Positions 11,035-50,184 of a stretch of DNA of 64,000 nucleotides are shown here, one piece after another; the first letter of the stretch is position 1; the number at the start of each line of letters is the position of its first letter. This DNA is from a virus, in the IMG/VR virus record IMGVR_UViG_3300020193_000005, positions 45,137 to 109,136 of that record; one strand, given 5' to 3'. The translations under genes were made by a program, and so were the position numbers. Under the pieces are notes generated by a model that ran no database searches, was not told where the DNA came from, and worked only from the letters and a program-made list of their open reading frames with translations.

Positions 11035-11038
11035 CGAA

Positions 11039-13909
11039 ATGATTGAATCCGCCACGCAAAGATTCATTTCGGCGATGGGCGAAATCGACGCGACCAGAAT
11101 GGAATCCAAGAAAAAGTCTCTCGGTCGGGACATGAATCCGTACACCGCCAGGGACGCCGATTTGGACAGATTGGTCCTCGAGGGAATAGCACGCGTAAAC
11201 ATGGGTAGGGGCATCCCCGATCCGACGCCGTTCGGAAACGTCGGAGCGATGACGCGGAATCAACCCCCCCCGGCGAGACCCGAGAACAGATTGCGCAGGG
11301 CGGTCAGGCGTTCCATGCGCGACACCCCGAAGAGGGTCGCGAGGGGAACCAGCTCATTGCGACGATACCTCGAGTCGAGCGACGGCGTCTCGGGGAGGAT
11401 GGCCTCGGAAAGACCGATCGATCAAATTTTCCAGAATTTCAAAAGGGTGTCCATCGACGAGATACGAAGCGGCGTAAATTCAGTCGTCGGGAAAGTCGAT
11501 TCAGTCATGGGGCAACGACCGAGAACGATCGGCGAAATATTGAGAAATCTGAAAAGTTTGGAAAATCTCATCAACGGAATGAATCCGGACGGATCGCCGA
11601 CCCCGAACGGAGAGAATAGGAATTTTCGTTTGCTTCCCCTTTTTTTCATGGCGTCCACACAGAATGCTCTTAGGGAAGCGATGGGAGATAGATTCGACGG
11701 AGAAAAAACGATTCCGTCGAAGCACGACATCGGCGTGTACTACGCGACGGCGTACTCGATGCTGGAGAATCCGGAGGCTTTTCGGGACGTCGATTTCATA
11801 ATTCAGCCGATGTCCATGCCCGACATCTTCGGTCATCCGGGCGCAGAAGGATCAGTTTCGATGGTTCCGTCGTATTACTCCTTCCACGCGCGGCCGCCGA
11901 AAAGCAGCGTTAGGCGTGAAAGGGGCGGCGGGTTCGATACCTCCGGAGTAGCCGACACCTACGTGGCGTTCTCGCCGGTCAAGGACTATAGCGAAGGTCT
12001 AATGATAAACGTGACCCATAATCCAAGGATCGTCGGCGGTCGACTGCCGGTGCTCATGAGATTGGCGATGTACGGAGAAGAAGGGGACAAAGAAACGGTC
12101 GTCAAGGGTTTCATTGTGCCGAAGTCGCAAACCGGAAAACGATCCGTTACCGAGAAGTTTCAGGAGACGGAATTCGTGCACGAACGGCGGACCGGCGAAA
12201 GGGCGACGTTTCAGAGACTTTTGAAGGAAGCCAACGATTTCATGGATGCCTATTCGGAAGAAATTTCTCCGTCGTTCGTTGTGGAGACGACGGGACTTGA
12301 CATAGTGCTTTCGCTGATCGAAGAGGCTCAACGAATTTTCAAAAAAGCGAACGACGCGTTGGCCGAAGATCCATCCGTTTCGCCGTCAATGGTGGAAGCC
12401 ATGCGCGACGAGGGCAAGCGGCTTATTGATCTGGCCGACATGACGGCCTCCATGGCTTTGGCTTTTCACGAATTCGGTCACTTTTTTGACAAAGTTGGCG
12501 ACTACAAAAATAGTCCCGCCTACCCGGAGGCGTCCGATACGGGGGGTAGGGGTTTGAATACCGCGTACGAGTACAGAAGGGATCTGGCGATACTCGAATC
12601 GCTGAAAAAGGGAGAACCTTCGCCGTATCTTGAATCCGTCGCCGAAGAGCTTATGCACGGCAAAGTGAAGAACATTTTGAAAAACTTTTTGACCACGTAC
12701 GTCGATATGACGGCCGCCCTAACGGCAATGGAGAGATTGTCGCTGGTCAGATCCTCCCTGAATCCGTTGATCGGCGACGTGGCGAAATTGGTAAACGACA
12801 ACGACGGTTTAGCCGGCTGGGCCTGGGTGAAAATGGTAGTGACCGGACAAACCAAAACGGTCGAAGACGCGGTTTCTACGATCAAAATGGCGGGGCTCGT
12901 CAAAGTAAACCCGGATAATTCGCCCTCCAGGGTCGAAGCGGAGGCAAGGCGAATCATAGGGGAATTGCGAAAAATATTCAGCTACGGGGCGGCCCGTGGC
13001 GTCGCTTGGGATATGCGCTCGCGCGCGTCGCGCCTGTTGACCCCCTCGGCTTTTGCCGCGCAAGCTATGGATAACGAAAATTTTAATTCCCTTTTGGCCA
13101 AGGCGGACGATCGGCAAAGAGCGATGATGCTCGCAGTGATGGCGGACGCCCTGGTTCGCGGCTACGACAACCAACTAAAAACATCCATAGAAGCCACGAA
13201 AGAGCGAATCATCGAAAACGAAAGGTTGTTCAAGGGTGAAGGAGAGGTGCCCGATAAATACATGGGACTAAGAAGAAACGCGTGGCTTTCGGAGTGGCTG
13301 TCCGGGCAGTCGTTCAACGTCGACGGGTATGCGACGGGCTGGAGTAGTCTCATGTCCGAATTGATTTCATCCAATCCCGACGTCGTCGTTGAGTTTCTGG
13401 AACTATTCGGCAGAAAGAACGCGATAGACGGTTGGTTTGACGCCGACGGCTCCTTCAGTAAAAAAGAATTCGTCAAAAGGGAAATAACAAGAAAACACGT
13501 AGACCAACCCAGTTCGTATAGTCCGATTCTTCACGCCATAAATAACGCCGTAAACGGCAGGGGTTATTCCGGATGGAAGGATCTGACCGACGACGAATCG
13601 GCGACTTTGGCCGCCGTGATCGGGAAAATAACTCAGTATGCGGATCAAACGGATTACGACATGGCGAATCCGAGACCCAAGCACGTTCAGGTCTCAAACG
13701 CCGAAACTTACGCGGAACTCAACGCCATCCTAAGCCTGAATATTCTTTCCTTCCTGAATGGGTTGACGCAAAGAGAGAGGGACATCGCCCTAAAATTGCG
13801 TTCGCAGATGATGTCAAGAGTAAACGAAATGCGAGGACGAATGTTGCGTAATTCCAGGCGATTGCGAACCCCCGAGGAACAAATGCGAACCCCCAAGGAG
13901 CAAAGATGA
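11039..13909 (+). CDS. Large virion-associated protein with shared N-terminal tag and zincin-like (HEFGH) domain
   Basis: DMNPYTARDADLDRLVLEGI...PDPTPFG at 11129-11236; HEFGH at 12467-12481; distal QYA...ETYAE. Confidence 0.75.
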   Translation: MIESATQRFISAMGEIDATRMESKKKSLGRDMNPYTARDADLDRLVLEGIARVNMGRGIPDPTPFGNVGAMTRNQPPPARPENRLRRAVRRSMRDTPKRVARGTSSLRRYLESSDGVSGRMASERPIDQIFQNFKRVSIDEIRSGVNSVVGKVDSVMGQRPRTIGEILRNLKSLENLINGMNPDGSPTPNGENRNFRLLPLFFMASTQNALREAMGDRFDGEKTIPSKHDIGVYYATAYSMLENPEAFRDVDFIIQPMSMPDIFGHPGAEGSVSMVPSYYSFHARPPKSSVRRERGGGFDTSGVADTYVAFSPVKDYSEGLMINVTHNPRIVGGRLPVLMRLAMYGEEGDKETVVKGFIVPKSQTGKRSVTEKFQETEFVHERRTGERATFQRLLKEANDFMDAYSEEISPSFVVETTGLDIVLSLIEEAQRIFKKANDALAEDPSVSPSMVEAMRDEGKRLIDLADMTASMALAFHEFGHFFDKVGDYKNSPAYPEASDTGGRGLNTAYEYRRDLAILESLKKGEPSPYLESVAEELMHGKVKNILKNFLTTYVDMTAALTAMERLSLVRSSLNPLIGDVAKLVNDNDGLAGWAWVKMVVTGQTKTVEDAVSTIKMAGLVKVNPDNSPSRVEAEARRIIGELRKIFSYGAARGVAWDMRSRASRLLTPSAFAAQAMDNENFNSLLAKADDRQRAMMLAVMADALVRGYDNQLKTSIEATKERIIENERLFKGEGEVPDKYMGLRRNAWLSEWLSGQSFNVDGYATGWSSLMSELISSNPDVVVEFLELFGRKNAIDGWFDADGSFSKKEFVKREITRKHVDQPSSYSPILHAINNAVNGRGYSGWKDLTDDESATLAAVIGKITQYADQTDYDMANPRPKHVQVSNAETYAELNAILSLNILSFLNGLTQRERDIALKLRSQMMSRVNEMRGRMLRNSRRLRTPEEQMRTPKEQR

Positions 13910-14208
13910 CCGAAACGAACGAAATGCCCCCGAAAGAAGAGATTGATCCGCTCAAGCAGAGGGAGATGGACGTCGCCGACGACATGTTCGGTTTTGGCAG
14001 AAAGAGCGCTAAAAAGGTTTTCCTTTCACTATTGACGGACAAAATGATGGAAAATGGAGTAAAGCCGGAATTAGCGAAGGACGTGGTGCTCTCGTTGTTG
14101 CCGGATTTGACCGAAATCGAAAAAGCCATCAGCGAAAATATAAGCTTTGCCGATCTGGCGAAAAGATACGAAAATTTCATGGATGGGGAATTGAGGGAAA
14201 ATGAATGA
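13906..14208 (+). CDS. Small acidic hypothetical protein
   Basis: 100-aa ORF, ATGA overlap, SD AAGGAG. Confidence 0.75.
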   Translation: MTETNEMPPKEEIDPLKQREMDVADDMFGFGRKSAKKVFLSLLTDKMMENGVKPELAKDVVLSLLPDLTEIEKAISENISFADLAKRYENFMDGELRENE

Positions 14209-14770
14209 GTTCTTGAACTCAAAAGCCGATCCGCTCGGAGGTCTTTTGCCCCAGGAGGTCGTAACCGGCGACGTCATGCGCGGATACGGTCCCAGAAGGG
14301 GAAATCTGGAGAGATTGCTTCGCTACTGGAGACCGATCATGAAGAAGCCCGGCGGATTCAGGAGGTGCAGGGTCATTCTCGCCGATCATCCCGAGCTGTA
14401 TCCGCTCAACAACATATGCGCCTGGTTGCATCACGAAACGACCGGATTATGGCCGAACGAAGGCTGTCACCACCCGGGCATGAAAAACTGCAGAAGAAAA
14501 CTGCGCGGCGTCGTCAACGGATCGATCTGGAGCGACTCGGATTTCAACGACAGGCTCAAGAAAATTACGAGGAGAAGGGGAAAGAAGGATCTCAGATCCA
14601 GTGGCGGTATCGACGCGGCCCAGACCTACGATCCGTTCGTGCCGGTCATAACGGACGACGACTGGAATCACGCCTGGGTGGTTTTGGACGACTTCGTAAA
14701 GATGGAACCGACCTTCGTCGCGTACGTTTGCTCGGACGATAACTGGGAGATGTTCGATTCGGATGTCTGA
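14201..14770 (+). CDS. Phage head-associated hypothetical protein with a Cys/His motif
   Basis: GNLERLLRYW...GGFRRC...CAWLHHETTGLWP resembles a motif I recall from actinophage head-region proteins; overlaps both neighbours in an operon. Confidence 0.65.
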   Translation: MNEFLNSKADPLGGLLPQEVVTGDVMRGYGPRRGNLERLLRYWRPIMKKPGGFRRCRVILADHPELYPLNNICAWLHHETTGLWPNEGCHHPGMKNCRRKLRGVVNGSIWSDSDFNDRLKKITRRRGKKDLRSSGGIDAAQTYDPFVPVITDDDWNHAWVVLDDFVKMEPTFVAYVCSDDNWEMFDSDV

Positions 14771-16856
14771 CGCTATGGGCAACGACGACTGTTGCGGGAG
14801 TAGAACTCTCGTCAAGAGGACAATTTCGCCGGCGCTCGCCGTCATGCGAACAAACGTATACGACGTGCCGCTGTATTTTTTTCGCAATAGACAGAAAACC
14901 GTGGACTACAAGTGTCTGATGACGAAATCCATATCCGAGAGAAGGACGACGAGTCATCAAATCAGCGTCAAGTCGGGGATAATTTCGTCGGACGACCCGG
15001 TCTCCAGGGCGGTTCAAACCGTGGGCGGAATTTTGATTCCGGGGAATATGTCCAGGATCAGGAGGCCTTTCAGATCCACCATCGGTTCGGCCGTGGTTAC
15101 GGGACCACGGGGTCTGATTCCGTCCACGGTTTCCAGACTTTCGCCGGGAATGATCCCGAAACCGGACAGGGGATTTAGGTGTCCGGAGGGTTTTCAATTC
15201 GGGGGACAATTCACGGACAAGTACTACTCGACGTGCGGGAAAAAACTCTTTCAGCTAGCCCTGACCGTGGGAGCGAATTTCGACAGATACGTAAAGCTGT
15301 CCTCCGCGGGCGCCCTGAGAAAATTCAGGATAAACGGATTCGAATTGTCTCCCATCTCCAGGGAGAGACAAATATCGGCATCGGATCAAATCTCGACCAT
15401 TCGGAATCCCCAAATTGATATACCCGAAGTCGGCTCGTATAGCGTGTCCAAATTCAGGGAAGCATTGCAATCCGTCGTGAAGGATATGACGGACAGGGGA
15501 GAGTCCTTGTCCCGCCTGGTGAGAAGGGACGGGTTGGTCCTGGAACCGCTCGTATCCGCCAAAGTCCTGAGGACGGTTCCGGACAACAAAAGCATGGAGG
15601 AATCCGCCTACGTGACGTTCGCTAAAAATCCCGCATACATAGGCGGAGACGAAATGTGGATGTTCTCCAACAGCGGAGTGAATTCGCTCGTTTACGTACT
15701 CCCCAACGGCGGAACCCTGACACTAAGAAAGAAAAGGAATCTATCGAACGGGGAACGAAGGAAGCTCGGGAGAACGATATCCGACGCCAGGAAAATGACC
15801 CTGTCCGACAATCCAGCGATCAGGTTGGAACACGTTTCCTCGGAAATGGACGGACCGATAGCGTACGAACAAAATTTTAGCGACATAGATTTTCCCAACG
15901 ATATGGTGATCGTGTTCGACGCGAAGACCAAAAAACAACGCCAGGTTCGCAAATGGCACAGGGACGCATATCTTCTGGATCCGAAAAAGAGAGTGATCTC
16001 CGAAAGGTCTACGCAGATAGAGGACGTCGCCGGGATGCAGGACGATCTCGGCGAGGCCGTTTCCATGCTGAACGACGGAGGGCAAATCGGAAACATAAGT
16101 CCGGAAATACGGATACCGGCTATGGAAAGATCCGGGGTTTTTAGAGCCAGGCGCGCCGGCGACCGCGCCACGGAGTATTACAACGGTCGGCAAAAACTCG
16201 TCGCCATGAGTTCCAGGGTCGAATTCGAGCACATCGGAGCAATGACGACCGCAGAAATACAGTCGCAATTGGGGGCGGTCGCTCCGTACGTTTGGTTCGC
16301 CGGATCGGGGATAAGAAGACCCTACATATATTCGATGCCCGACGGCGACAAGAACGCAACCAGAACCTCGAGGGTAAGCGACGAAAGTTTCGCAAACGCG
16401 GAAGATATGACTCGACTGATGATCGCCGACATCCTCACCGATTCTCTGTCGAGAAATCCTTCGCTGATATACACCTCGCAGTTCGACGGAAAAAACAGGA
16501 CCTATTCGGCGCCTCTTTCGCTGTCGGCGATGTCGGGAATGAACAGGAAGGAAAAAGAGAAGAGAATATCCGAGACTTCCGCGGAGGTAATGCGCGATCT
16601 TCGGGTCTCCATATATTCGGATTACTTCCGTTCGTTGAGGGCAGCTCAAAGAAAAAGATCCCTGTCGTTGCTGGAGGAACTCCTAGAGAGAGCTAAAATG
16701 TTCTCGTTCGCCGATTTTGCGAGAAGAATGGCCATAGACGGAAAAATGTCGGAAGCCGAACGCATTCATCTCGAATCGGTGAAAAGACTCTACGAAAATA
16801 GGGTTCAACATCTGTACTCGGGCATAAAGACGATCAGGGAGATAATCGGTGAATAA
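14763..16856 (+). CDS. 697-aa virion-region protein; RCPEGFQFGGQFTD motif, possible degenerate HipA/PI3K-like C-terminal fold
   Basis: Long ORF in the operon; RLMIADILTDSLSRNPSLI loosely matches the D-x-L-x-x-N-x-D-R kinase-like motif. Confidence 0.6.
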   Translation: MSDAMGNDDCCGSRTLVKRTISPALAVMRTNVYDVPLYFFRNRQKTVDYKCLMTKSISERRTTSHQISVKSGIISSDDPVSRAVQTVGGILIPGNMSRIRRPFRSTIGSAVVTGPRGLIPSTVSRLSPGMIPKPDRGFRCPEGFQFGGQFTDKYYSTCGKKLFQLALTVGANFDRYVKLSSAGALRKFRINGFELSPISRERQISASDQISTIRNPQIDIPEVGSYSVSKFREALQSVVKDMTDRGESLSRLVRRDGLVLEPLVSAKVLRTVPDNKSMEESAYVTFAKNPAYIGGDEMWMFSNSGVNSLVYVLPNGGTLTLRKKRNLSNGERRKLGRTISDARKMTLSDNPAIRLEHVSSEMDGPIAYEQNFSDIDFPNDMVIVFDAKTKKQRQVRKWHRDAYLLDPKKRVISERSTQIEDVAGMQDDLGEAVSMLNDGGQIGNISPEIRIPAMERSGVFRARRAGDRATEYYNGRQKLVAMSSRVEFEHIGAMTTAEIQSQLGAVAPYVWFAGSGIRRPYIYSMPDGDKNATRTSRVSDESFANAEDMTRLMIADILTDSLSRNPSLIYTSQFDGKNRTYSAPLSLSAMSGMNRKEKEKRISETSAEVMRDLRVSIYSDYFRSLRAAQRKRSLSLLEELLERAKMFSFADFARRMAIDGKMSEAERIHLESVKRLYENRVQHLYSGIKTIREIIGE

Positions 16857-19800
16857 CGATCTCGTTTTCGCCCCGATTCGCGACGTCTATACGGATCTGA
16901 TATTTTCCGTGCTGCTGAGCGACGGAATAAAGTGCAAGGCGATAGGAAACATGAACCAGGGCGACGACTGGGCGCGTTGGGCGAACGGGTCGGGCCTGAG
17001 TAGTTCGCTAATACTGGATTCGCTCGACTACACGTTACGAGCCGACGAGTTCTCTCCCCTAACGGAGTCGTCCCTGATCTCCGTCAAGTCGATCCTCACG
17101 GCGGACGCATACGACGCGCTTTCCGTTTCGCTGGATGGCATTTCCATCAAGTCTCAACCCGACGACGACGAATCGCAAGCCGACGAGGATCTCCCGGAGC
17201 CCGAACAGGAGCCCGTTTCCGCCATATCGGTGATCGAGGTGGGGATGTCGTTGTTCGACGCCCAATTCAAGAAATTGGCGGTCGACTACAAGGCGAATTA
17301 TCAGAATACGAAGATAGACGTGTCCTCCTTGGCGCTGAGCGTAAAAGCCACCAAGTCCGTGTGGGCAAATAAAGCGGACGGCGTCGCTTGGAAATCATTG
17401 GTCAGCAACTCCTACTCCGACGATCCTGGCAAATTGATTTACGGAAAGATGTACGGGCGCGGTCTATCGCGGCGTTTCGCCATGTCCGTAAAAGCGGTTT
17501 CCAACATGGATCCGCGAACGGCGAGGGACGCCGATTCGGACAGATTGGTCCTCGAGGGCATTCCCACAGTGAACTTGGGTAGGGGGGTTCCCGATCCGAC
17601 CCCGTTCGGTGCAGCGAGGCTCGCCAGAAGAACCAGAAAAAACCGAGATTACGCCGTAGCCGACGGTAAAAACAGAAAGCGAAGAATGGAGTCCCGTTTC
17701 TCCGCCGAAATCAGGACGGGCGGATTGGATTCAACAGCCGTCGGAGGGCGCGATTACTTAAAAGACGACGAATCCGATTCCGGAAAAACGACGTTGAACA
17801 GAAGAATGAATCGCAGAACCGCGGGAAGCTCGACGAGCGCGACCGCGAGAGGAACGAGCGCTTCGTTCGATTCGGGCAATCCGGCCCAGTCGGCGACGCG
17901 CTCAACTAGAGGAAGGTTTCCGAAGACTTCCAGGATCATTCAAAAAATAAGGAACAATCCTCCGGTGAGGAGATTGTCGGAAAACGTTTTCGGGGATCGC
18001 AAGATTTCGGGAAAGAAGCCGAGACTCGACAAAAGGACGATGGCCAATCGATCGACCGGGTGGCTGAATAAACTTTCCGAGAGAATAGCCTCCGCCAGTC
18101 CCCCGAAAATGGACACCGGTTCGCCGATAAGGGAAAATAGAAGAAGAAAATCGCCCTTCGCCGGCGAGAGCGACACCGGTCGGATGAGGCGCGTCGTCTA
18201 CAGCCAGACGACACCGATGAGGAGTTTGTTCGGATTGAGAAACTCAATGGACGACGATTCCGCCAACAGAAAGAATCTCTCCGAATATACGCCGACCGAA
18301 AGGGCGCTGATACTCGGAGAGGCGAAAAAGGTCAGAAGCGACCTTCTCTCGCAATGGAGATCGCGTTTGGGTCTATCCGAAGACGCCGACGTACTCGAAG
18401 ACGGAATTTTGACCTATATCCAGGATCAGGAAGCACGTGGAAAAAACGTCTATCCGCTCCAGGTTCAGGCACATAATTTGCTGATCCTCGACGAAATGCT
18501 CTGGGATGCGGAAACGAAACCCGACAAGAACATGGACAACATGTGGTGGAACCTCAAGGAAAACGCTAGAGCCAGAATAGTTTCCGATTCTGGCGTTCTC
18601 GTTCCTAGCGCCCAAAAACAGGGGGACAACGATCTTTCCAGGCCACCGGCTCGTCCGGTAAAAACCCCGATAACCGCTCCTCCTCCGAAGAGCGCCGACG
18701 AAATCGTCAAAACTCAGGTCGCGGCAAACGACAATCCCTGGAAGATGGATAAAAATACGAGAGATCAGGTCATGTCGGATCTGGGCGAATGGTTGAAAAA
18801 CTCTCCGGAATTCCTAACGTTTAGCGATAGGTTCGGCGAAAACGAAACCGAGTGGGACGAATTCAGCCCGTCGGAACAATCCGCGTTGAAGAGGGAAATG
18901 GGATACCGCGAGAATGAATTGGTCAACACCATAAACGAAATAATGACGCCGACGTCTGCGAACCAAAAGGATTACCGAATCAACGGCAGAATCACCCCGG
19001 AATCGTTGAGAAACATGACGAACGATTCCTACGTTTCCCTCAATCCCGGCGGCGCAAATCTCTACCCAGACATCAGATCCCTGATCGCCATCATGGATCT
19101 TCTGGGGGCTCCGAACTGGGACGTAAAAACCCAGAAAGAAGCGTGGAAGGCGATCGGAAACAGAAACAGGAATGTCGTGTCGAAGCGCGCCGACATACTC
19201 CGGAGAGATTTGAGACGCGGGGGTAGGTACGGCGGCGTCGTCGGAGAGCGAACGCAGGTTACGCCTAAATCCAGGGCGACGGAGACCGAAAAGCCGGTAG
19301 AGCGGCCGGTCGAGCCGGTCACGACCGAACCGACGCAAACCCAGAATCCGTCGGTTCGAGCGACGCAGTCGCGTCCGTCCATCAACCTGCCCAGAACCGC
19401 TAGAGGGGGCGCCGTAAAAACGGTGACGCTCGTCGACGAGGACGGGAAAGAAATCGTCAAAGAGGTTTCCGCATTCGGGGATCCCTTCCAATACGACCAC
19501 GAAGATCAGTACGTTGACCGAAACGGAACTCTTTATTTATACGAAAGGCAGAGCAAGCTCTACAGAAATCCCGTCACGGGTGAATATCTCGAGAACTATT
19601 CGGATCCGGGCATGGAAGTTGACGTCGGCATAGATTCCGAACTAGAGCATCCACCGGTAAACCAGAGGGTACAAAAGTCGGCGAAAGTCGGGAATGTCGT
19701 CTCCTACCCGCAACAAAACGTCGGTGGCAAGCAGCAAAAACCCAGGTTCTTCAGTAAAATTTCGAATCTCAGGCTAGCCAGGGACGGGGGGAAAAATTCC

Positions 19801-22800
19801 GACAAACTAAGCCATTTCCAGGTTTTCGCGACGGCTCTCGGAATTTCCGAATCGGAACTGTTGGAGAGACTCGGCATGACGGCGGATAGTGGCGGAAAGG
19901 TCTTTTATCTTGCGCCTGGCGTTTTGGAAGGTCTGAGCCCGGACACGGCGAGACAAGCCTACGAAATTATGTTGATGCTAGACGACGAATACATGACGGA
20001 CGATATGAAAATCGAGGAGTTGACGACCCTCGACGTAATAGACGCAAGCGAGTTGTTCGCCGACGGTCGTCGGGCGACGGCGGCCGAGGTGTACGCCTAC
20101 TACGTCGATCCAGACTTGTTGGATTTGGGTTATTCTGCGGATCCGGGGATTTACGGTCTTGCTCCCGGAACGGCCAAAGAACGAGTTCTGGCCCACTACA
20201 TCTCGGGTTCTCTCCTTCTCCCGAGAGACAAAGATCCAAGCTACGGCGACTCCAACTTCGCGGTGGCGATGCCGGACGGTTCAAAATTGGTCATAGGTCA
20301 CGACGTCGGTTCTAGAGGCAGCGCGCGAGCCATTCAGTATCCGAAATACCTGAACATGGATCTGACGACGAGGCAAATCGTGGTTCCTTTCGATTTATTC
20401 CTCGAAGGACAGAGTCGCTTCGTCAACCGATACAACCAAATCGGGGTTCCGCTCATTCCGGGTATTCCCGACATCGGAGACGTAAGACTGAGCGTTCCGA
20501 AATTGGTCGCCGTTAGGTATCATCCTGCCGGCGTCGCCAGACAGAGGGGCTCGTATTGGAAGGGATCCCCGAACGACGAGCCGATGCGCGTCCTGGCCAG
20601 GAAGGTGAATAAGGCGATATTAGACGACACGGATTCGGATTGGTTTGAGGCCATAAGAGACGCGGTGAGGAAGTACAACCAAGCGTCCAACCAAATGCAA
20701 ACGGCTCTAGCCGAATGGAGAAAAATCAGGGGTAATCGCAGCAGGGTAAAGGGACCGAAACGCTCATTCATCATGGAACAGGAAAAATTGGAGGCGATCG
20801 GAAAAATAATCACCGAAATACTGGCTCCGAACGCGCATAAAGCCCTCAATAGGGTGCGCGGGACCAAGTCCGCTACCGCGAAAACGAGGAACCAGGTTCA
20901 ACGGATGAGGTTCAACAGGTCGTCGAGCGCCGGAGCGAAGAACTCGCCAGATCTGGAAGAACGACAACTTTATCCGACTCACGACGAAGCCGGAAATATT
21001 ATCGTAAGGAGTCCGGAGACGTTGATCGAGTTGTCGAAACTCAACCACACCGAGGGATTTTTGCCCATGATCAAGCTCGACGTAAAACCAGATAGCGATT
21101 ACGAGATTTCTCAACTAACCGAAGATCAAATTAGGAGCCTGGCCAGCATAAGGCTCGCCGAGGAAACGTTGATTGATCCGAGCGACCCGGATTTCGAACT
21201 ATCGGAAGAATTGAAAATAGAGAGCTCCTCTGAACAGAACGAGGAGAGAGTGGCGAGGGCATCGGCCAGAAAAAAAATGTCGCAAAAGGTGGCACTGGAT
21301 CTCGCCGGCTACACCTACAAACCCGTCGCGGCGACTCAGGTTGAATTCATGGAGTTGCTTGCTGACGCCGACGAACTTGACCCCGTACCAGAGGATAAAT
21401 TGCCGACGAATTATCCCTTAGACGCAGACTGGACCGTGCTGCCGATAGTGAGGGGAATAAATCACAAAATAGACGTTAGAAAACCAATTAGAGAAAAATT
21501 ATTTAAATGGTTTTTCGGCGGAAACAAATTTACCGACGAGGCGGCGAAGGAACTTATTGACGGTCCTTATTTCGTTCCCTCCGGCTACAACGGCGCCGTC
21601 GGCGGCGAAGGTTTGAACTTTTATCACGCCAGCGGTGGCGGCTCCGGTGGCTACACTGGCGGGAAAAACGACAAAGTCATGATGGCCGTGATGCCGAACG
21701 CGAGAATTTTCCACCGCGGTTTGTTGAAGTATCTTGCGACGCAAATGACCGTGCTACACCAAATGGTGTCAGCGGCGATCTACTCGGACTCCGGCGTTGA
21801 GAGAGAATTACCGATAGACGAAGACGCCTGGAACTCGAAAAACTTCGATTTCGCAGATAATCCGAAGATCTACTCGCATTTCTACTCGCCGTACGGGGGG
21901 GCTTACCAAAACTACGAAGTCAGGTACATCGACGACGACGGAAGCATCGCGCAATATACCGTCTCGGGCTCTCAGGGTTTCGGCGATTCCCTGGATATAT
22001 CGAACGTTCAGGCACAAGAACAAGAACCCGTTCCGAAGAAACCGAACCAAGAAGACACAAGAACGCTCTCCGAGCAGAGATACGATATTTTCAGAAACCT
22101 GTGGTTCGGTATTTTCGGGGAAGAACCTTCGGAGAAATACAGGGGCCTCGACTCGAGCGACGCCAAAACCATGAACGAACTACTGGAAGAAATAATGAAG
22201 AAACTCGTCACGGTCGTTCCGGCCCAAGCCCAGGAAAGACGAAAAAGGGGCGATAGTTTGACGCCGAAGTCGAGGCGCACGGGGATTGCTGACGACGCCC
22301 CAAATAGAAGTTTTCCGATTGATCCGAGATTTTTTGACATTGACTTCGTAGCGGAGACGAGCTTCAATGCCGACTATTACCTAAGTCCGGAAGAGCTTCG
22401 CGAATATTCAATTGCGGAATGGGCGAAGAGAACCAGGGCGCAGATGCTGTCGTGGTTCATTCAGGCGGAGATAGCCAAGGGTGCCGAAATAGCAAAAGCC
22501 AGATTGGCTGGCAAAATCCCGTGGAACGAAGAAATAAGGAAGTATGTCGCCTTCCAGGAGGTGCTGCTAAGACTTGAGGACGAAGTCGTACTGGGAACGA
22601 TAATAGGAGTCGACGGATACTGGAGCGACGACGACACGGATGAACTGCTCAAACTCACGGAAACACCGGCAATCTCCGAAAGGTCGATTGGGAGAATGTT
22701 TGTTCGGAACAATAAAATGATCTTTTCTCCCGTTTACCAAGGGAACTTGGGCGGGCAATTCATGCTTTTGAACAGAACCGCCGTCGTCGCCAACGACCGA

Positions 22801-22971
22801 ACGTTATATCCGTCACAGGTCGGAGAATTTTTGCAGTCCCTGAGGAGCGCGTTCGGCAAGCCCGGTGGTCGAGAACGGTATGCGCCTACGGGGAACATGT
22901 TCAATAATTCAGTAAGGTCTACTTCCTGGTGGAAGAGGCTAGGATTGAAGGCGCCCTATGGCCGATCCTGA
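16849..22971 (+). CDS. Giant virion-associated protein (2040 aa) with shared tag and a putative C-terminal ADP-ribosyltransferase-like domain
   Basis: GTG start with SD GGAG; tag at 17503-17610; DTGRMR at 18172; IVRG...GGEGLNF...GVDGY...LLNRTAVV at ~21445-22790. Confidence 0.75.
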   Translation: MNNDLVFAPIRDVYTDLIFSVLLSDGIKCKAIGNMNQGDDWARWANGSGLSSSLILDSLDYTLRADEFSPLTESSLISVKSILTADAYDALSVSLDGISIKSQPDDDESQADEDLPEPEQEPVSAISVIEVGMSLFDAQFKKLAVDYKANYQNTKIDVSSLALSVKATKSVWANKADGVAWKSLVSNSYSDDPGKLIYGKMYGRGLSRRFAMSVKAVSNMDPRTARDADSDRLVLEGIPTVNLGRGVPDPTPFGAARLARRTRKNRDYAVADGKNRKRRMESRFSAEIRTGGLDSTAVGGRDYLKDDESDSGKTTLNRRMNRRTAGSSTSATARGTSASFDSGNPAQSATRSTRGRFPKTSRIIQKIRNNPPVRRLSENVFGDRKISGKKPRLDKRTMANRSTGWLNKLSERIASASPPKMDTGSPIRENRRRKSPFAGESDTGRMRRVVYSQTTPMRSLFGLRNSMDDDSANRKNLSEYTPTERALILGEAKKVRSDLLSQWRSRLGLSEDADVLEDGILTYIQDQEARGKNVYPLQVQAHNLLILDEMLWDAETKPDKNMDNMWWNLKENARARIVSDSGVLVPSAQKQGDNDLSRPPARPVKTPITAPPPKSADEIVKTQVAANDNPWKMDKNTRDQVMSDLGEWLKNSPEFLTFSDRFGENETEWDEFSPSEQSALKREMGYRENELVNTINEIMTPTSANQKDYRINGRITPESLRNMTNDSYVSLNPGGANLYPDIRSLIAIMDLLGAPNWDVKTQKEAWKAIGNRNRNVVSKRADILRRDLRRGGRYGGVVGERTQVTPKSRATETEKPVERPVEPVTTEPTQTQNPSVRATQSRPSINLPRTARGGAVKTVTLVDEDGKEIVKEVSAFGDPFQYDHEDQYVDRNGTLYLYERQSKLYRNPVTGEYLENYSDPGMEVDVGIDSELEHPPVNQRVQKSAKVGNVVSYPQQNVGGKQQKPRFFSKISNLRLARDGGKNSDKLSHFQVFATALGISESELLERLGMTADSGGKVFYLAPGVLEGLSPDTARQAYEIMLMLDDEYMTDDMKIEELTTLDVIDASELFADGRRATAAEVYAYYVDPDLLDLGYSADPGIYGLAPGTAKERVLAHYISGSLLLPRDKDPSYGDSNFAVAMPDGSKLVIGHDVGSRGSARAIQYPKYLNMDLTTRQIVVPFDLFLEGQSRFVNRYNQIGVPLIPGIPDIGDVRLSVPKLVAVRYHPAGVARQRGSYWKGSPNDEPMRVLARKVNKAILDDTDSDWFEAIRDAVRKYNQASNQMQTALAEWRKIRGNRSRVKGPKRSFIMEQEKLEAIGKIITEILAPNAHKALNRVRGTKSATAKTRNQVQRMRFNRSSSAGAKNSPDLEERQLYPTHDEAGNIIVRSPETLIELSKLNHTEGFLPMIKLDVKPDSDYEISQLTEDQIRSLASIRLAEETLIDPSDPDFELSEELKIESSSEQNEERVARASARKKMSQKVALDLAGYTYKPVAATQVEFMELLADADELDPVPEDKLPTNYPLDADWTVLPIVRGINHKIDVRKPIREKLFKWFFGGNKFTDEAAKELIDGPYFVPSGYNGAVGGEGLNFYHASGGGSGGYTGGKNDKVMMAVMPNARIFHRGLLKYLATQMTVLHQMVSAAIYSDSGVERELPIDEDAWNSKNFDFADNPKIYSHFYSPYGGAYQNYEVRYIDDDGSIAQYTVSGSQGFGDSLDISNVQAQEQEPVPKKPNQEDTRTLSEQRYDIFRNLWFGIFGEEPSEKYRGLDSSDAKTMNELLEEIMKKLVTVVPAQAQERRKRGDSLTPKSRRTGIADDAPNRSFPIDPRFFDIDFVAETSFNADYYLSPEELREYSIAEWAKRTRAQMLSWFIQAEIAKGAEIAKARLAGKIPWNEEIRKYVAFQEVLLRLEDEVVLGTIIGVDGYWSDDDTDELLKLTETPAISERSIGRMFVRNNKMIFSPVYQGNLGGQFMLLNRTAVVANDRTLYPSQVGEFLQSLRSAFGKPGGRERYAPTGNMFNNSVRSTSWWKRLGLKAPYGRS

Positions 22972-23401
22972 TGAAAATAACCTGACCGCGGAAGAAATTT
23001 ATTCCATGATCGCCGATTTTGCCGAACTTTCGGAATCGGCGAAATATCCTCCTTTTTCGGTTTCGCACGTACCGAACCAGTTGCTTGAGGCGTTGAACAG
23101 GGAGTTCGAGGACGTCGTGCTCCGCGGAAAGTCCTACGATTCTTTTGACAAAGTGAAGGAGGAATTCGCCGAGGGCATCTCCGAGGCCAGGGCTTGGTCC
23201 AAATTGTTCGATACTCCGAAGGACGCGGCCATCGAATACCTGAGGAGGAGTTACGAGAAATTGGGCAGGGATCCGAAGAGCACTCTCGCCATGGCGAGGG
23301 GAATGCACGAACGGCTCGGACGAACCTACGATTCCAATAAAATCATTCCACCTCTGGCGGAACATATGGGGTTTGGTCAATACGAATCGCAGGACGAATG
23401 A
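22958..23401 (+). CDS. Small hypothetical protein following the giant gene
   Basis: 147-aa ORF overlapping both neighbours. Confidence 0.7.
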   Translation: MADPDENNLTAEEIYSMIADFAELSESAKYPPFSVSHVPNQLLEALNREFEDVVLRGKSYDSFDKVKEEFAEGISEARAWSKLFDTPKDAAIEYLRRSYEKLGRDPKSTLAMARGMHERLGRTYDSNKIIPPLAEHMGFGQYESQDE

Positions 23402-24261
23402 TGTCCGACGACCCCAACTCGAAAAGACAAGTGGCGAAAATAGCCAGATACATGGGGTGCAGGGGGGTTCATTTATCCTCCGAAGGAAAATGGCTTCCGT
23501 GCGCGGATGCCGAAACCCTGAGAAGACTGAGCACCGCCGCCGAGGACGATTCGTGGATAAAAAAGTACGAGAAGTCGCTGTTCCTGCTTCCCGGCGGGAT
23601 CGTGGCCGAAAAAACGGCTTACACCAAACCCAAATTGAGGGAGTCTATAAAGAACAGAATCATGGCGGGATCGCGCGGCGGAAAACCGGGTCAATGGTCG
23701 GCTAGAAAAGCCCAATTGGTGGCCATTGAATACCGTAAGGCCGGCGGCGGATACAGGGGGAAGAAAACAAAAAAACAAAGATCTCTCTCCAAGTGGACGA
23801 AGGAAAAATGGACCACGTCCGACGGCAAGCCGGCGATAAGAAAAGGAGGGACCAGACGGTATCTACCGTCCAAGGCGTGGCGCAAGCTGACGCCCGCACA
23901 GAAAAGAGCCACCAATCGCAAAAAAATAAGCGGCAGCAGGAAAGGTAGGCAGTTCGTCGCCAATACCGATGCCGCCGCGGAAGCCAGACGATCGGCGACT
24001 AAATCTCTGATTTCCCAAATGTCAACCAAATCAATCGTCGTACAGAATTTCTCCGAGCTCAACGGTCGCGGTTCCAAGAGAAAAAAGAGGGGGAGGCGCT
24101 GGGAAAAATTGCACGAAAGGGGTCCTTTCTCCGCCCTCGGAACGCCCGGTCTTGGGATCACCTCAAGCCCGGGAGTGATCTCGGCATCGCTGACCAAGAG
24201 GCTCTACGACGCTAGCGACGACGTCAAAAATTATCTGGATATCAAAAGACGTAGCTACTAA
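23398..24261 (+). CDS. Basic protein with DUF3721-like Cys motif and DUF5872-like domain
   Basis: ARYMGCRGVH...WLPC; YTKPKLRESIK...GGKPGQWSARKAQL...YRKAGGGY...SLSKWTKEKW...RYLP. Confidence 0.8.
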   Translation: MMSDDPNSKRQVAKIARYMGCRGVHLSSEGKWLPCADAETLRRLSTAAEDDSWIKKYEKSLFLLPGGIVAEKTAYTKPKLRESIKNRIMAGSRGGKPGQWSARKAQLVAIEYRKAGGGYRGKKTKKQRSLSKWTKEKWTTSDGKPAIRKGGTRRYLPSKAWRKLTPAQKRATNRKKISGSRKGRQFVANTDAAAEARRSATKSLISQMSTKSIVVQNFSELNGRGSKRKKRGRRWEKLHERGPFSALGTPGLGITSSPGVISASLTKRLYDASDDVKNYLDIKRRSY

Positions 24262-24338
24262 CGCCACGGATACCGAGGAAAGAGTATCCTTATCGGTACG
24301 ATAAGCGCGCCGCGCCGTCGATACACACGGAAGAAACG

Positions 24339-27300
24339 ATGACCGAAGATCACGAACAAGGCGATTGTTGCCCGCTCTCGCCGGACGGGCATTCGCCCGA
24401 GGAAAAATCGTTTTCTTTCGGTCCGAGACAAGTCAGGCCCGACGAATTTGACGCATTTGTTGACAAGGAATCCGCTAGATCGAGGGCTCGACAACTCGGG
24501 TGCATAGGAATCAGGCAGTACAGTTCGACCGCCGGCGGTTTGATATGGATGCCCTGTAGTAACGAATCGGACTACAGAAGGGTGACCGGCAGAAGTCCCC
24601 TGGGAAGAAGGGAAAGAAGACGGATTCTTCGAAACGAAATTGAATCCGTCATGAAGAAAAAAGATCTGGGCCCGTCACTCGGAATGAGCGACGCAAGGGA
24701 CATGAACCCCGCCACGGCCATAGACGCCGACCTGGACAGACTCGTACTCGAGGGAATACCGACGATCAACCTCGGTCGCGGGGTGCCGGATCCCACTCCG
24801 TTCGGAACGGAAATTCCGAAAATTCCGGAAACTCGAAGAGTGTTGGACGCGCCGGAAAAAATTGAGGCGAGAACGCCGGACGAACCCAGGAAGAAAAAAC
24901 TGAAGCGGATACGCAAAATAATCGAACCCGTCGTCGCGCCAAAGGCGTCCCCTCTTTCGTCTGCGGCGAAAAAATTCGGAAAAATCAACTTTCAAAAAAT
25001 AACGAAGAAAAAGAAACCGAAGAAGAAAAAACTCAACTATTCGACGGTTATCGGCAACATGGAGAAACTCCTGACGGATTTTCCCGTCGACTACTCCTTC
25101 GTTCCGAAACCGATCTCCGACGATGCGAGATCGAAGCTCGGCTTGACGGGGGCGGCGGGACTACCGGCCGAAAGAATAAGATCCGGCGCGGCGATCGCGG
25201 AAATTTCGGAACAATCCATAAACTCCATGAAAAATATTTTCCAAATGATCGGATCGCAGACCGGAAATCAATACGCGTCCTTGATTGATTCGCGAATAGC
25301 GAAGATGAATTCAGCCCAGAGACCCGTCGCCCCTCGGCCGCCGACCGGATCGGCGACCTTACTGGGCGCCATTCTCTCCGTTCAGCGTTCCAATAACGAG
25401 GAGTTCATCGGAACATACGGAGTTGGGGATTCCGATTTGTTCTCGGAGAATTACGTATCGTCCATGGAGAAACTCATATCGCAGGGATTTTTTCCGGAGA
25501 CCGCGTCCTATCTGGTTTCCAATTTCAACGACATGGACGGAGGGCAGAGAAAAGCGGCGAACATGCTCGGCATGTCGGATCGCTCCCTCAGGAGACTGAG
25601 GCGGGCGGCCGAGAAATCGAACAAGGTCTTCGGGGTCGGTACGGAAACGATCGGCTTGGCGAAGGTGGACTCGGATCCTTTTGAGGTGGCGACCGCGGTC
25701 CTATTGGCGAGAAACTATCTTCTAGAGAACGCTCGCAAAAACGGCGTCGATTACGACATGTGGCGGGCCGTCAGCGAATTGACCGGGGCGAACAAGCAGG
25801 TCACGCGCCGAATGTTTTCCTCGATTTTTTCCGCGAACAGAGATTATCTCGGGGAGGTTTACGGGGACTCTCGAAACGTCTCCGAGTACGGTAACGGGCT
25901 ACTGAGGCTCGCCAGCGGCGCGGCGGCGAACATGTCGGAGAACGACGCGACCGACCTGAACTCGATGATGAACGACAGCGATTCCGGGGCTATGGCCATA
26001 TACATTCCCCCCTCGAATCGGAGACCGAGGGATATCAACCCCAAAGCATCCCTGATTTACCCGATGCACAAACGTCAATCCGGTAGTTGGAGCGAAATAG
26101 CCAAAGACGTTCAAAAAATTCTGCGAAAGATAAAGAAGAACTTTCGCCACGTGGGGGACGCAGAACCGAAGCGATTCTCGTCTCTGGAAAAAGACATCGG
26201 GCAGATCCTGTTGGAATTGTTGCCCTACAGTTTCACCGACTACGCGAGGGAGATAGCGATACTTCAGGCGATACTGAGGGATAGGGTCGAATTCAATCTT
26301 CTTCCCATCGGAGAAGTGGGGAGTAACATCGGAGGAAAATTCGTTCCGGACGTACAGAAACTCTCCGTGTTGGGGCAAAACGGATTGTTGGATTTGTTCG
26401 AACCGATCAATGCGGTCAACGCTAGAACGCCAGAAAGAGACCTCGTTCCGAAACCCCTAAGTCTCGTGAGGGCGATATCTCTTCTAACGGAGGCGCTCGA
26501 TATCGCCTCCCGAGCCGCTTCCGAAATTCTCGCCACGACCGGCAGGGAGCGATTTTACGGTGACATCGGTTTGAGAACGAGACAGGAACTCGAAAGGCGA
26601 GACAAGTCAGCAGTCAATTTTCTAGTTTCCGACGCCTACCGCACCAGAGACTACGCCGAAGACGTGGATGGGTTCTCCCCGTATGAGCAACTCGTCATTT
26701 TCGGTCGAGGAATGAAGACGACAACGGACGACGTCGGGCAGATTCGCGATTACCTCAGCGATCGCCTGAGAAGATTGGAGAGAATCACCAATTTCGGTGG
26801 CACGATGGATGCCAGCAAAATAAACATGTTCGAAGCGACCGAGTCGGGGCTCGGCGACGAAATTATCGACGCAATCAGGGGCATAAACGAAGCTTGGTTC
26901 AACACTCTTCTCCCCTCCTACGTCAAACCGGTACCGGTGGCGGATCCGTCGACTCGAGAAATTCGCGAATTGTCCCCGGGGAGTACGGCGAGAAGGTACA
27001 GAACGGCGAAACAATTCTCCGACGCGCTGGCCGAGACGTTTGACTCGCTATACATGCGAAACGCTTCGCCGGATCTCCCGTCATCTCTTTTCGACCCGGA
27101 AGGCGAAACGATAGTCAAGGACAGATTCTTCGACGCCTACGAAGAACTTTTGCCGCTGATACTGGATCCCGAGAATCCGAGTCGCCCAGCGTTTACGTAT
27201 TCGGAGATAGATGCGGCGATCCGGGAATCTTTCGCCGAACTATTGGATCGAAAGCCAAGAGGCGTCGCAGAGTTGATGAAGAATCTATTGAACGACGGTC

Positions 27301-30300
27301 TCATGGAGGACGTAAAGAGAAACTTAAGGAATAGGTTCGGCGGTTACGACGCGTCCTTGGGCGGAGATCCGCGGGTGACGGAAAAATTCAGGTTCGTAGA
27401 CGCTCAATCGATCATACCTCGCCTGACCAGGGAGCGTTCGGCGAGAAGGCTCAGGAGGGCGACCGCCTCGGTTTCCGACGACGGAGATTCGGGAAGAATG
27501 GGCGGTTTTTCCGTTCCGAGACCCATCCAGTCGGCGACCGGCGGAACCCCCGGGGGAATCGGCTTTGATAAGAATTACGTGCGATCCGGTGATCTCGCCA
27601 ACGAGATGCGTCAAATAGACGAAAACAGCAAAAGGTTTTGGGACATGGTCGACGACAAGGTGTCGTTACGGGTGGCGGCGCGCGGATTGGCTCTACTCGA
27701 AGACCTAAAAGATCCTCAAAAACTTAGATCACTCATCGACGACATTTCTTCCCTTGCCCCGACGATCAACGGCCAGAGACTGGAGCCCTATTCGAATAAC
27801 GATGCCATCGCCATAGTGAAGGGGATGAAGGATTTATTCGATAGAAACGAATTGTCGGATATTGCGAATAATTCGGTTACCTACGATCCGGACAGACCGT
27901 GGACGGCGAACGTGATGACCTTCCTGATGGGCAGGCAAACGGGGAAAAATCCGCTACCGAAACAGTTTTTCGGGGCGCACCCCGACAAGCTCAGAGACTT
28001 GAGATTCGCGCCCCTTTATTACGACAACAACATGAGAACCCTGAGACCGTTCATGGAGTCTCTAGGAATCGGATCCGACGGAGAGATGATCAAATTCGCA
28101 ATGACGGGAAGACCGATTACCGGGAGTAGAAAGCACACGAGTCCGAAGAACAAGGACAATCAGGAAGCCAATTACGTGGGAGACGTGATGGCGATGTTCG
28201 TAGAGGGTCCGGAATCTTTGTCGAGGTACTCGGGCGGCGACAACGAGAACGATCCGAGAAGAAACTCCGACGTTGGCATAGGTCAGGCTTTCGAATACGC
28301 GTATCAGGTTTATCTGCGCGATCCGAGAAGAAAAATGAACGGTTCCCCGCTTTTGACGGTGGTCGGCGATCCCGCTAGAGAATTCGCGGTGAGGAACGAT
28401 TTCCGTAAACGCATTCACGACCTGTGGAACGAAGCGGAAAGAGTCTACGGCAGAGAGATACAGGGAAGGCCGGCGCCGATTCAGGACGAAGCGTTGTATT
28501 ACGCGGCGACGCAGGCGGTCAAATTGGCGGAGACGAATTCGTCAAGATTGGTCACGAGAGAAGATTTCTCCGAGGTTATGGACGTCATCCTACGAAACGA
28601 TATGGGAAGGGGATTTAGCACCTTCGGAGAAATCGCAACGGCTATTTTGGGAGAAAAAGCCGAAGCTTTCCGCGAACTTTCCGGTGAGGATTTGCGAAAA
28701 GCCGTAATCAACTCCATGACCCCCGAGTTGAAGAAGAAATTGACGGACAAAAAAAAGAGAATGAAAACGGCGGAAGAAATCTTCTTCGCCTCGGCTGTGG
28801 CGATCGCCGATTTCCCGTGGGATTCGGACGACGATCATTCAAATAAGAAGAAAGAGGATTGGATTGAAGTCGGAAAGAGAATCGGGGAGCTGAACCAAGC
28901 CTCGGTTTTTTACGACGAATTTTATAAGTATTTGTCGGAAAACGGAGGGGATAACGCCAAGTATTTTGACGCGCGATTCGGGAAGTTCATCACATCCAAT
29001 CAATTGAGCGTGATAGTCGACGACATAGCGCCAGGATTAACCGAGGGAATCTTCGCCGGAGAATCGGGTCGCATGTCGAAGGGCGAAATGATGAGCGAGG
29101 AAGAATACAAAGCCATTGTCGCGGCTCGCAATGCCATCGTAGAAAGAGTCAGGCGAAGCAGGTTTTTGTCCTCCCTTGATTTCGCCCAGGAAAAAGTCGA
29201 CGAAATCAACGAATTAGCCGAGAAGGCCGACAAGCTGATCGAATGGAAGAGAGCGAGACTCCTGAGCCTTGTCACGCCGCGCGATGGCGCACTGACGGAC
29301 GACGACTGGTTCGTCTACGCCGCGATAGGCGGTTTCTATCGACCCTTCCGATCGATATTCCTGCAAAGATTTGACGAAAAAAGCGCTCCGATCAGCGTGA
29401 CAACGGCGAGAGATAAGCTTCGCACGTTCATAGCCGAGGCCGGATCGGACGTCGTTAGGGAACTGTTCGGATGGGTTTCGACCGCGATCAGGGGGGAGGA
29501 AGACGAGCCGACCGAGGACGGAGAAACCAAGTTTAGAACGGTCTACGAGCTGACCTCCGACGGCGGAGTATCGCCGATTTTGGATCGACCCGACCTATTC
29601 GAGCGATCCGACGACGCAAGAAACGAAATATCGTACATAGATCCGAAGGCCAAAGAACCGATCATGGTGAGAGCCGAAGACGGGAGCCTGATACCGAAAC
29701 AGAAATCCCCGGCCGAATTGAGGAAAGCCAGCACTCCCATCAAGGTATTGACTCCCTACGGAAAACTCAACAAAGCGATACTTGACGGAGCGCTAAGAGC
29801 CGGTCTCGTCGCGATGCCGTCGGCGGACGAGGCCGAGAACGAATTACCCCTAGATATAGCACTCTCCGTCTTCGGGGGAGAATTGCCTCTCATCGAATTG
29901 CCGAAATCCTGGCACGAACCGCTGAGCGACGAGGAGCTTGAGCTCACCTTCACGCGAGCCGATTTGGCCGAAATAAGTAAGCAAGTAAAATTGTTCAACA
30001 GAAGATTTGCGCTGGAGATGCTCACAGGGGAAAAGGTTTCCCCGGACGTTAGCCAGAAGGTAGTCCGCGGAAAAGCGGAATTTATCGCCACGCCGGAACA
30101 GTTGAGTCAGAATCAGGCGTTGGAAGCCATGAACCCGCTGAATCAATCGAGCGTAAAGTCCTTCGTGAATACTCTTTCGCCCGAACAGTTGAAAACGATC
30201 GGTGCGTTGTTCGGATCCGATCAATCCTCCGCCATCAAGCTGACGCCGGAAATGTTGCTCGCCGCCAACGGCGGGTTGGATGAAGTCAATCTGAGCGTCG

Positions 30301-44001: not shown

Positions 44002-44127
44002 TTTTGAAGCTACTTACACTACGGACTCAAGTATTCTGCTAACTTTGAATGCAGACGCAAGCAGCGGGTGCTTACCTGGCGCTGTCTAATCAAGCAGCAA
44101 CAACAACCATGCCCAGGAGGCAAAATC

Positions 44128-49509: not shown

Positions 49510-49748
49510 GCGACGACCTTGTTTTTGGATCTGATTTTGCGGCGCTGATTTTCCGTGGTTCCACCCCAAATACCGTAGAGAATCTCGTTGTCCAACGCGT
49601 ATTTCAAACACTCCTCCCTAACTACGCAAGCGCTACACAGGGCGAGGGCGCCTTTCACGGAATGCTTGTTGGCTGGGAAAAAGGACACTTTCGGGGTGTC
49701 GGCGCAATTGGCTTTCTTGCGCCACGATTGACCGGGTACGAAAAACAT
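49506..49748 (-). CDS. whiB: WhiB-family Fe-S transcription factor
   Basis: SD AAGGAG; W..KANC...CSACVVREEC...YGIWGG. Confidence 0.92.
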   Translation of the reverse strand: MFFVPGQSWRKKANCADTPKVSFFPANKHSVKGALALCSACVVREECLKYALDNEILYGIWGGTTENQRRKIRSKNKVVA

Positions 49749-49828
49749 GATAATTAGCTCCTTATGAGTAGCAACAACACTACCCCTCCCGTACGCCGAA
49801 AACAACCCCAAAACACTAGAATTTAGAC

Positions 49829-50179: not shown

Positions 50180-50184
50180 TCGGC

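Follow-up and report, generated by a model that had tools for sequence, protein, structure and literature searches.

We analyzed a 64,000-nucleotide stretch of an uncultured phage genome, IMG/VR record IMGVR_UViG_3300020193_000005 (here named G000; 109,136 bp, CheckV completeness about 73%). This stretch, the window below, comprises bases 45137 to 109136 of the record, and the element in question is a 36-residue peptide, hereafter the tag, that recurs toward the N termini of very large proteins encoded among the phage head genes. The tagged genes form part of a 61-kb one-strand block between a portal gene (PF04860 plus MuF) and the major capsid protein gene (PF05065). Starting from the portal gene, the block encodes gpA, small open reading frames (ORFs), a 674-amino-acid (aa) protein (gp674), gpB, gpC, gpD, again small ORFs, a 697-aa protein (gp697), gpE, a 287-aa protein, and gpF, followed by the capsid gene. 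No separate scaffolding gene was apparent. The portal gene and the tagged genes are listed here, in window coordinates unless those of the record (G000) are given.

G000 25427-27715 (L001:228-2513): portal protein, PF04860 with a Mu F-like domain, PF04233, fused at its C terminus
G000 27789-39041 (L001:2590-13842), upstream of the window: gpA, 3750 aa
1-3135, + strand: C-terminal 1044 aa of gpB (2180 aa in all), whose tag lies upstream of the window
11039-13909, + strand: gpD, 956 aa, tagged, no Pfam or PHROG match
16849-22971, + strand: gpE, 2040 aa, tagged, no Pfam or PHROG match
24339-43739, + strand: gpF, 6466 aa, tagged polyvalent protein directly upstream of the capsid gene

An earlier note on this DNA had described three copies of the tag, and translation reproduced all three quoted peptides exactly. 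Each was also recovered with a profile hidden Markov model (HMM).

11129-11236, + strand: tag copy on gpD (956 aa), aa 31-66
17503-17610, + strand: tag copy on gpE (2040 aa), aa 219-254
24699-24806, + strand: tag copy on gpF (6466 aa), aa 121-156

The three copies were thus real, but the number was too low for the record as a whole: the three-copy HMM, run against all six frames of the 109,136 bp, returned five copies (E values of 1e-23 to 1e-26) and no further match above noise. The two additional copies, both upstream of the window, are at aa 580-615 of gpA and aa 28-63 of gpB, the latter about 3.3 kb before the window start. All five copies are on large ORFs inside the portal-capsid block and none is found elsewhere in the record; extended profiles did not find a divergent sixth copy in gpC, gp674, gp697, the portal protein or the capsid protein.

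When the five G000 copies were aligned, 25 of the 36 columns were invariant. At the DNA level the copies are 71 to 86% identical, with many synonymous differences, and pairwise comparison gave synonymous divergence (dS) values of 0.5 to 2.1, which is near saturation, and ratios of nonsynonymous to synonymous divergence (dN/dS) of 0.08 to 0.21, indicating old copies under purifying selection on the peptide. The same values ruled out a recent DNA repeat or conversion tract as the origin of the copies. A multicopy element at the 5' ends of mosaic genes might also be devoid of a function of its own, being either a duplication remnant or a recombination hot spot that shuffles cargo genes. Given the near-saturated dS combined with low dN/dS, a DNA identity that nowhere extends into the flanks, and the conservation of the motif among phages whose capsid proteins are 66 to 78% identical, we find this idea barely credible. 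The tag had no Pfam match at E<=10, no PHROG match and no sequence match in the PDB. It is a real, selected, clade-wide peptide module and represents a new sequence family.

The carriers are otherwise unrelated, as the earlier note had stated: in blastp comparisons among the giant proteins, gpD, gpE and gpF share the tag and the basic stretch that follows it alone, and the tag is the only sequence that gpA shares with all four other carriers. The N terminus of gpA is a Peptidase_S78 prohead protease domain (aa 32-177), followed by DUF6321 (aa 241-312), while gpF contains DUF3721-like, HTH, NUDIX and Zeta_toxin domains. Several unrelated effector-type domains are thus found on one polypeptide encoded among virion genes (gpF, and gpA with S78 plus DUF6321), which is the definition of polyvalent phage proteins, giant multidomain effectors whose genes lie among those for the head and for which packaging and injection are predicted (Iyer, Burroughs, Anand, de Souza & Aravind 2017, PMC5512222). 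The DUF3721-like part of gpF is a Cys-containing mini-domain ahead of the tag (aa 43-76; window 24339-24700), and the 287-aa protein encoded just upstream (window 23398-24261) opens with a similar mini-domain and has a weak match to DUF5872. A tail sheath gene (phrog_23; L002:7588-9036, minus strand) and the large terminase gene (L002:18610-19899, minus strand) are located upstream on the opposite strand, the former indicating a contractile-tailed phage.

The distribution of the tag was determined with a profile of the five copies searched against 1.84 billion representative proteins, which gave 39 matches, 34 of them true clusters. The remaining five were false, namely, Kelch-type repeats (P0042 to P0045) and another tandem repeat (P0046), and were not relatives of calcium repeats. 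All 34 true clusters are large proteins or their fragments (220 to 6391 aa), and the tag occupies five recurrent N-proximal positions in them, around residue 28, 37-48, 121, 203-229 and 532-539, which match orthologues of gpB, gpD, gpF, gpE and gpA, respectively. Among these homologues, the consensus is x-M-N-P-x-T-A-[RI]-D-A-D-L-D-R-x-V-L-E-G-I-P-x-[IV]-N-x-G-R-G-[VI]-P-D-P-T-P-[FG]-G. The phage collection gave no match either in a tblastn search with the tag (50,697 records, E<=1) or in a blastn search with window positions 10600-18500, although this collection may lack G000 or phages close to it.

The capsid protein has 286 relatives in IMG/VR. G001, G005, G006 and G007/G008, with capsid proteins at least 73% identical, carry three to five copies of the same type in the same gene order, and the complete 138-kb genome G004 carries two copies of the G000 type. 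The earlier note had called for a co-occurrence survey with HK97 head genes, and its outcome was favorable: in all eight related records with a tag of the G000 type, the tag is on large ORFs, and in G000 and the four relatives for which coordinates were worked out (G001, G004, G005 and G006) every copy falls within the interval from the S78 protease to the HK97-fold capsid gene. With a broader profile (A7), the motif was detected in 28 of 33 related records, typically in one to five clear copies per record, and in seven in G006 when weak matches (E of 1e-4) are counted. Each lineage has a form of its own, common to its paralogous carriers. For example, G038 carries three near-identical copies of one variant, and G026, G031, G034 and G039 carry three to five copies of the form F-D-P-x-A-x-D-G-D-G-D-G-x-V-Q-E-G-T-P..., with a protease-led protein in each of these four sets. 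A lineage-own variant common to paralogous carriers is the pattern expected for a single co-evolving receptor, and the sequences fit it. Strict concerted evolution among the G000-type records was rejected, since mean identity was 0.69 within a genome versus 0.72 at the same position across genomes; lineage-specific variants appear at greater distance despite this lack of general homogenization. A sub-variant that starts with L-P-P-P-H-L-V-R-N-A-D and has I-Y-E-G in place of V-L-E-G is found at the gpD and gpE positions of G005, G006 and G007; it is conserved across genomes at a given position (L133, L134, L138, L142, L143), and G000 is homogeneous at all five.

The carrier that bears most directly on function is the protease protein. 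The gpA tag lies C-terminal to the S78 domain on the same polypeptide (aa 580-615 versus 32-177), as expected of an encapsidation segment of such a protease, and the homologous position is tagged in the protease orthologues of G005, G006, G017, G020, G024, G025, G026, G031, G034 and G039. Since the S78 protease works only inside proheads, the gpA polypeptide needs a prohead entry signal. Distant relatives, with capsid proteins 66 to 70% identical, kept a diverged tag about 400 aa after the catalytic domain, which in G017, G024, G020 and G025 reads ...DP-x-x-A-x-D-x-N-x-N-G-I-V-G-E-G-L...P-D-P-T-P.... In G017, G024, G020, G023, G025 and G040 the protease protein carries the sole copy of the tag. 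Since it alone is tagged, at the same position, in several lineages, the sequences suggest an origin of the tag in this protein, with later copying onto cargo. The protease protein of the relatives is either a stand-alone protein (789 to 896 aa in G004, G028, G033 and G035) or fused into giants of 2300 to 4800 aa.

The sequences around the tag are also conserved. The earlier note had placed each copy after a K-S/A/D site and ahead of a basic stretch, and both features were recovered: K26-S, K215-A and K108-D are present in gpD, gpE and gpF, respectively, and the 60 residues after the tag have a net charge of +3 to +10 in G000, the tag itself being at -2 to -4. In relatives, the motif K[AS]LGPx[IV]G is conserved 10 to 16 residues upstream of the tag, and in 29 of 38 homologues the 60 residues after the tag carry a net positive charge (background mean, -1.6).

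11114-11125, + strand: K-S-L-G ahead of the gpD tag, part of the K[AS]LG motif, a putative protease site
17491-17502, + strand: K-A-V-S immediately ahead of the gpE tag
24660-24671, + strand: K-D-L-G ahead of the gpF tag (KKKDLGPSLG)
11237-11416, + strand: basic stretch after the gpD tag, +10 over 60 aa, opening with the degenerate linker N-VGAM
17611-17790, + strand: basic 60-aa stretch following the gpE tag, net charge +6
24807-24986, + strand: basic 60-aa stretch following the gpF tag, net charge +9
18172-18186, + strand: first DSGAM-type linker after the gpE tag (DTGRM, aa 442), end of the tag module
25980-25994, + strand: first DSGAM linker after the gpF tag, aa 548

The linkers in this list belong to a recurrent motif, D[ST]GxM, mostly DSGAM, which occurs 30 times in gpA, gpB, gpC, gpE and gpF, counted over window positions 1-43739 plus the upstream part (G000 27789-88875), versus 0.43 times expected from shuffling. 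Its reading as a Shine-Dalgarno sequence with an ATG, that is, as an internal start, was rejected because the Ser and Gly codons vary synonymously, which points to a signal at the protein level, plausibly a processing site. Other lineages have a linker of their own, ISGRM in G004 (about 13 copies), R[FL]SSG in G017 (about 19) and RLSSG in G024 (5 to 8), and these, too, look like putative processing sites. In every case the first DSGAM-type linker comes after the tag. The linker follows directly in gpB (DSGLM) and gpD (N-VGAM), where the tag is bracketed by candidate cleavage sites, and it is likewise immediate in G004. A single tag could thus bring in an entire polyprotein and be removed afterward. 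By blastp, gpA 580-798 aligns with gpE 219-458. This alignment runs from the tag as far as the first linker and indicates that the unit is a propeptide-like module of more than the 36 residues. The untagged gpC (2527 aa, window 3451-11034) has four DSGAM-type sites.

Structure prediction with AlphaFold2 gave no fold for the tag module alone (mean pLDDT of 53). When gpA 1-703 was modeled, the protease and two further domains folded (pLDDT of 70 to 89) and residues 655 to 702 formed a long helix, while docking of the tag (pLDDT of 34 to 49 at 580-615) onto the protease or the neighboring domains was not seen in this model. The tag is thus predicted to be intrinsically disordered, which fits a peptide that acquires a fold only when it binds a partner in trans.

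A first candidate for such a partner is the capsid protein.

44128-45501, + strand: major capsid protein of the HK97 fold, PF05065, whose N-terminal region, about 100 aa or more, is delta-like; candidate receptor

Its ORF spans 44068-45501, and the 120 homologues, which are 422 to 494 aa long and cover 92 to 96% of the query, point to M21 (window 44128) as the probable start. The N-arm region contains the motif EFK[SA]LNGGRNGANM, which is invariant across the family. On alignment to the mature HK97 chain, the HK97 cleavage position maps about 35 residues downstream of EFKAL, so that homology with K103|S104 was not established. The delta/N-arm junction of G017 and G024, QLSSRE, recalls the R[FL]SSG linker of these phages.

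The likeness of the upstream K[AS][LI]G to the invariant EFK[SA]LNGG might mean that K[AS]LG and the tag together form a protease recognition or processing module, an exosite or propeptide junction for S78, and that head entry is not involved. K[AS][LI]G also resembles the K|SLGS maturation site of HK97, but alignment did not establish homology. Such a module would be in keeping with the linker motifs adjoining the tag in gpB, gpD and G004, and with each lineage having its own linker, as if protease and substrates co-evolved. Cleavage sites nevertheless exist without a tag, as gpC shows with its four DSGAM sites, the models reveal no docking of the tag in cis on the protease domain, the HK97 cleavage position falls some distance past EFKAL, and about 36 conserved residues are more than a mere cleavage site needs. 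We therefore consider a pure processing role unlikely.

The portal is another candidate partner, since it is fused here to a Mu F-like domain, and MuF is a head component known for effector fusions (PMC5512222). The tag could bind the portal-MuF protein or the tail channel and place the proteins for exit together with the DNA, with 12 sites limiting the number of copies; a single set of cargo amounts to about 2.1 MDa, which would argue for a low copy number such as a 12-site receptor gives. Yet an exit signal is of no use to the protease, and cutting at the linkers would leave most effector modules untagged by the time of ejection, which makes an ejection leader improbable.

Comparison of 46 copies found in related phages gave D-x-D-x-D-[G/R]-[LIV]-V-x-E-G as the core of the tag. 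D1 is present in 41 of these, D3 and D5 each in 44, G6 in 23 (R in 12), V8 in 38, E10 in 40 and G11 in 40, counts that are partly shaped by the extraction pattern. Position 6 is Arg in G000 and Gly in most lineages. The earlier note had likened this core to an EF-hand Ca2+ loop, which did not hold up: the Glu is at position 10 and not 12, no helix-loop-helix is predicted, and there was no Pfam EF-hand match at E<=10. The spacing appears to match that of the Excalibur motif DxDxDGxxCE (Asp at 1, 3 and 5, Gly mostly at 6, an acidic residue at 10), but Excalibur has a Cys at position 9, which none of the 46 cores has, and the only Pfam Excalibur match, on one tag variant, was weak (E of 0.15; 12.9 bits, below the cutoff of 22). 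The DxDxDG calcium motif functions without flanking helices, also in disordered proteins (PMC8391695). We put forward only as a hypothesis that the core might take up a divalent cation and become folded when it docks.

A disordered, acidic peptide that has a DxDxDG-like loop, is flanked by basic sequence and is carried by proteins with effector-like NUDIX and zeta kinase domains, could also act after injection, as a short linear motif, possibly Ca2+ dependent, that gathers effectors at one host protein or membrane site. We regard this as very unlikely, because the tag is on the polypeptide of a protease that acts during assembly and several lineages carry it on that protein only; besides, there is one tag per polyprotein, ahead of the first linker, so that most modules would be untagged.

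Overall, the tag is most likely a prohead-loading signal shared by the protease and the giant polyvalent cargo, a reading to which we give about an even chance. It is the only sequence common to five head-module proteins, one of these is the prohead protease, and this protein is the sole carrier in several lineages, all of which argues for such a role. The earlier note had proposed a capsid- or portal-targeting label; gene context and the protease carrier lend good, though circumstantial, support to capsid targeting of the kind known from phage T4, whereas the resemblance to an EF-hand did not stand. By analogy with the HK97 protease, we favor the capsid protein or its delta region as the receptor, with the portal-MuF protein as the main alternative.

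According to the mechanism we propose, while the portal and the capsid protein, bearing its N-terminal delta/scaffold region, assemble into a procapsid, a common receptor on the procapsid interior would recruit each uncleaved giant by its tag module, made up of K[AS]LG, the tag itself and the partly helical basic stretch. The S78 protease would enter likewise, as the N terminus of one tagged protein. Once inside the head, it would cut the precursors at the recurrent linkers (DSGAM type and/or K|[AS]L), freeing domain-sized effector modules that would be kept in the head for ejection and detaching the tag. Binding, receptor, cleavage and metal binding of the tag are what we infer.

Several observations weigh against the loading signal. 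First, gpC (with its DSGAM sites), gp674 and gp697 are untagged in the same block; they would use another route, or the tag is not required. Second, the cargo pair of G004 has tags of the G000 type, while its stand-alone protease protein has only a degenerate variant, 'FDGDSDGF', so that protease and cargo versions are not always matched, and two tag sub-variants coexist within G005, G006 and G007. Third, the tag is 120 to 580 aa from the N terminus in three of the five carriers, unlike the terminal capsid-targeting sequence (CTS) of phage T4. Finally, the interaction of the tag and the presence of tagged proteins in virions are both predictions from the sequence of an uncultured phage, and the proposed cleavage sites, K|[AS]L and/or the DSGAM type, are candidates.

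Precedents for a loading peptide are the T4 CTS (of IPI-III and Alt) and, in phage SPN3US, the N-terminal propeptides of ejection proteins and the C-terminal propeptide of the protease (PMC7411985). The CTS and the long N-terminal propeptides of SPN3US, too, are N-proximal peptides common to unrelated internal head proteins and thought to bind the prohead interior, and the tag is likewise placed. They are removed by the prohead protease after assembly and their cargo is ejected into the host, which for the tag is a proposal only. The T4 CTS consists of 10 to 20 residues at the extreme N terminus, whereas the tag has 36 (about 55 with K[AS]LG) and starts at aa 28, 31, 121, 219 or 580. T4 has a gp21-type system with a separate scaffolding core, in contrast to the HK97/S78-type head genes and HK97-like delta domain found here. 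The tag also differs in being present on the S78 protease polypeptide and in the size of its cargo, 1 to 6.5 thousand aa. No sequence relation of the tag to known CTS peptides or to T4-type head genes was found.

The C-terminal region of the HK97 maturation protease, reportedly studied by Duda, Oh and Hendrix in 2013, is said to target the prohead and to be able to carry foreign cargo. It is C-terminal to the S78 catalytic domain, as is the probable ancestral position of the tag, but no similarity between the two is detectable, and the tag is about 400 aa past the catalytic domain. Unlike the HK97 segment, it follows DUF6321 plus two folded domains and was probably copied onto up to four other proteins.

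The polyvalent proteins described in PMC5512222 resemble the giants studied here in their head-associated fusions (MuF/portal domains) and in processing by a protease, which for the giants is a prediction. They differ in having an assemblin-like peptidase, at C termini only, whereas S78 is N-terminal here, and in that no common targeting peptide was described for them, while a common tag and lineage-specific linkers organize five polyproteins in G000. The tag can further be compared to the cargo-loading peptides of encapsulins, which are short, conserved, disordered and usually C-terminal, occur on diverse cargo encoded beside the gene of the HK97-fold shell, and direct that cargo into the shell. 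The motif of these peptides is another one, and the shell is a bacterial nanocompartment and not a virion. In concept, the tag is most likely a variant of the known capsid-targeting and cargo-loading signals.

How proteins are chosen for packing with phage DNA is understood in few model phages only. Here, one peptide is present on the maturation protease as well as on four giant effector polyproteins, and the five proteins together amount to about 15,400 aa and about 42% of the genome. Versions specific to a lineage probably extend to hundreds of related phages from metagenomes. If the loading signal is real, it would explain how such large cargo is recruited and would tie cargo loading to the entry route of the protease itself; it would also provide a compact tag for putting foreign proteins into HK97-type shells, for which the natural tag variants, with their receptor, would be a ready-made specificity series. 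A more specific version of this reading is tentative, and we would rather doubt it than not: the tag may be a portable, cation-dependent docking peptide, a one-loop 'mini-dockerin', once the entry element of the protease and later copied onto up to four giants, which would drive encapsulin-like loading with lineage-coevolving tag-receptor pairs and bring in effector polyproteins of at least 2 MDa per set, in a large uncultured group of contractile-tailed phages.

Some further features of the record were noted. A region of about 300 aa is common to gpA (2369-2682) and gpC (1296-1627), and gpC has weak PHROG matches to a DNA polymerase exonuclease subunit (aa 1324-1505) and to a portal-like stretch, together with a C-terminal HTH. 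Upstream of the head block, an ORF of 1776 aa (G000 6289-11619) had no PHROG match. Beyond the capsid gene, window positions 46655-52135 (minus strand) encode two DNA methyltransferases (303 and 451 aa) on either side of a 682-aa helicase-like gene, and a metallophosphoesterase gene is found at window 56295-57512 (plus strand).

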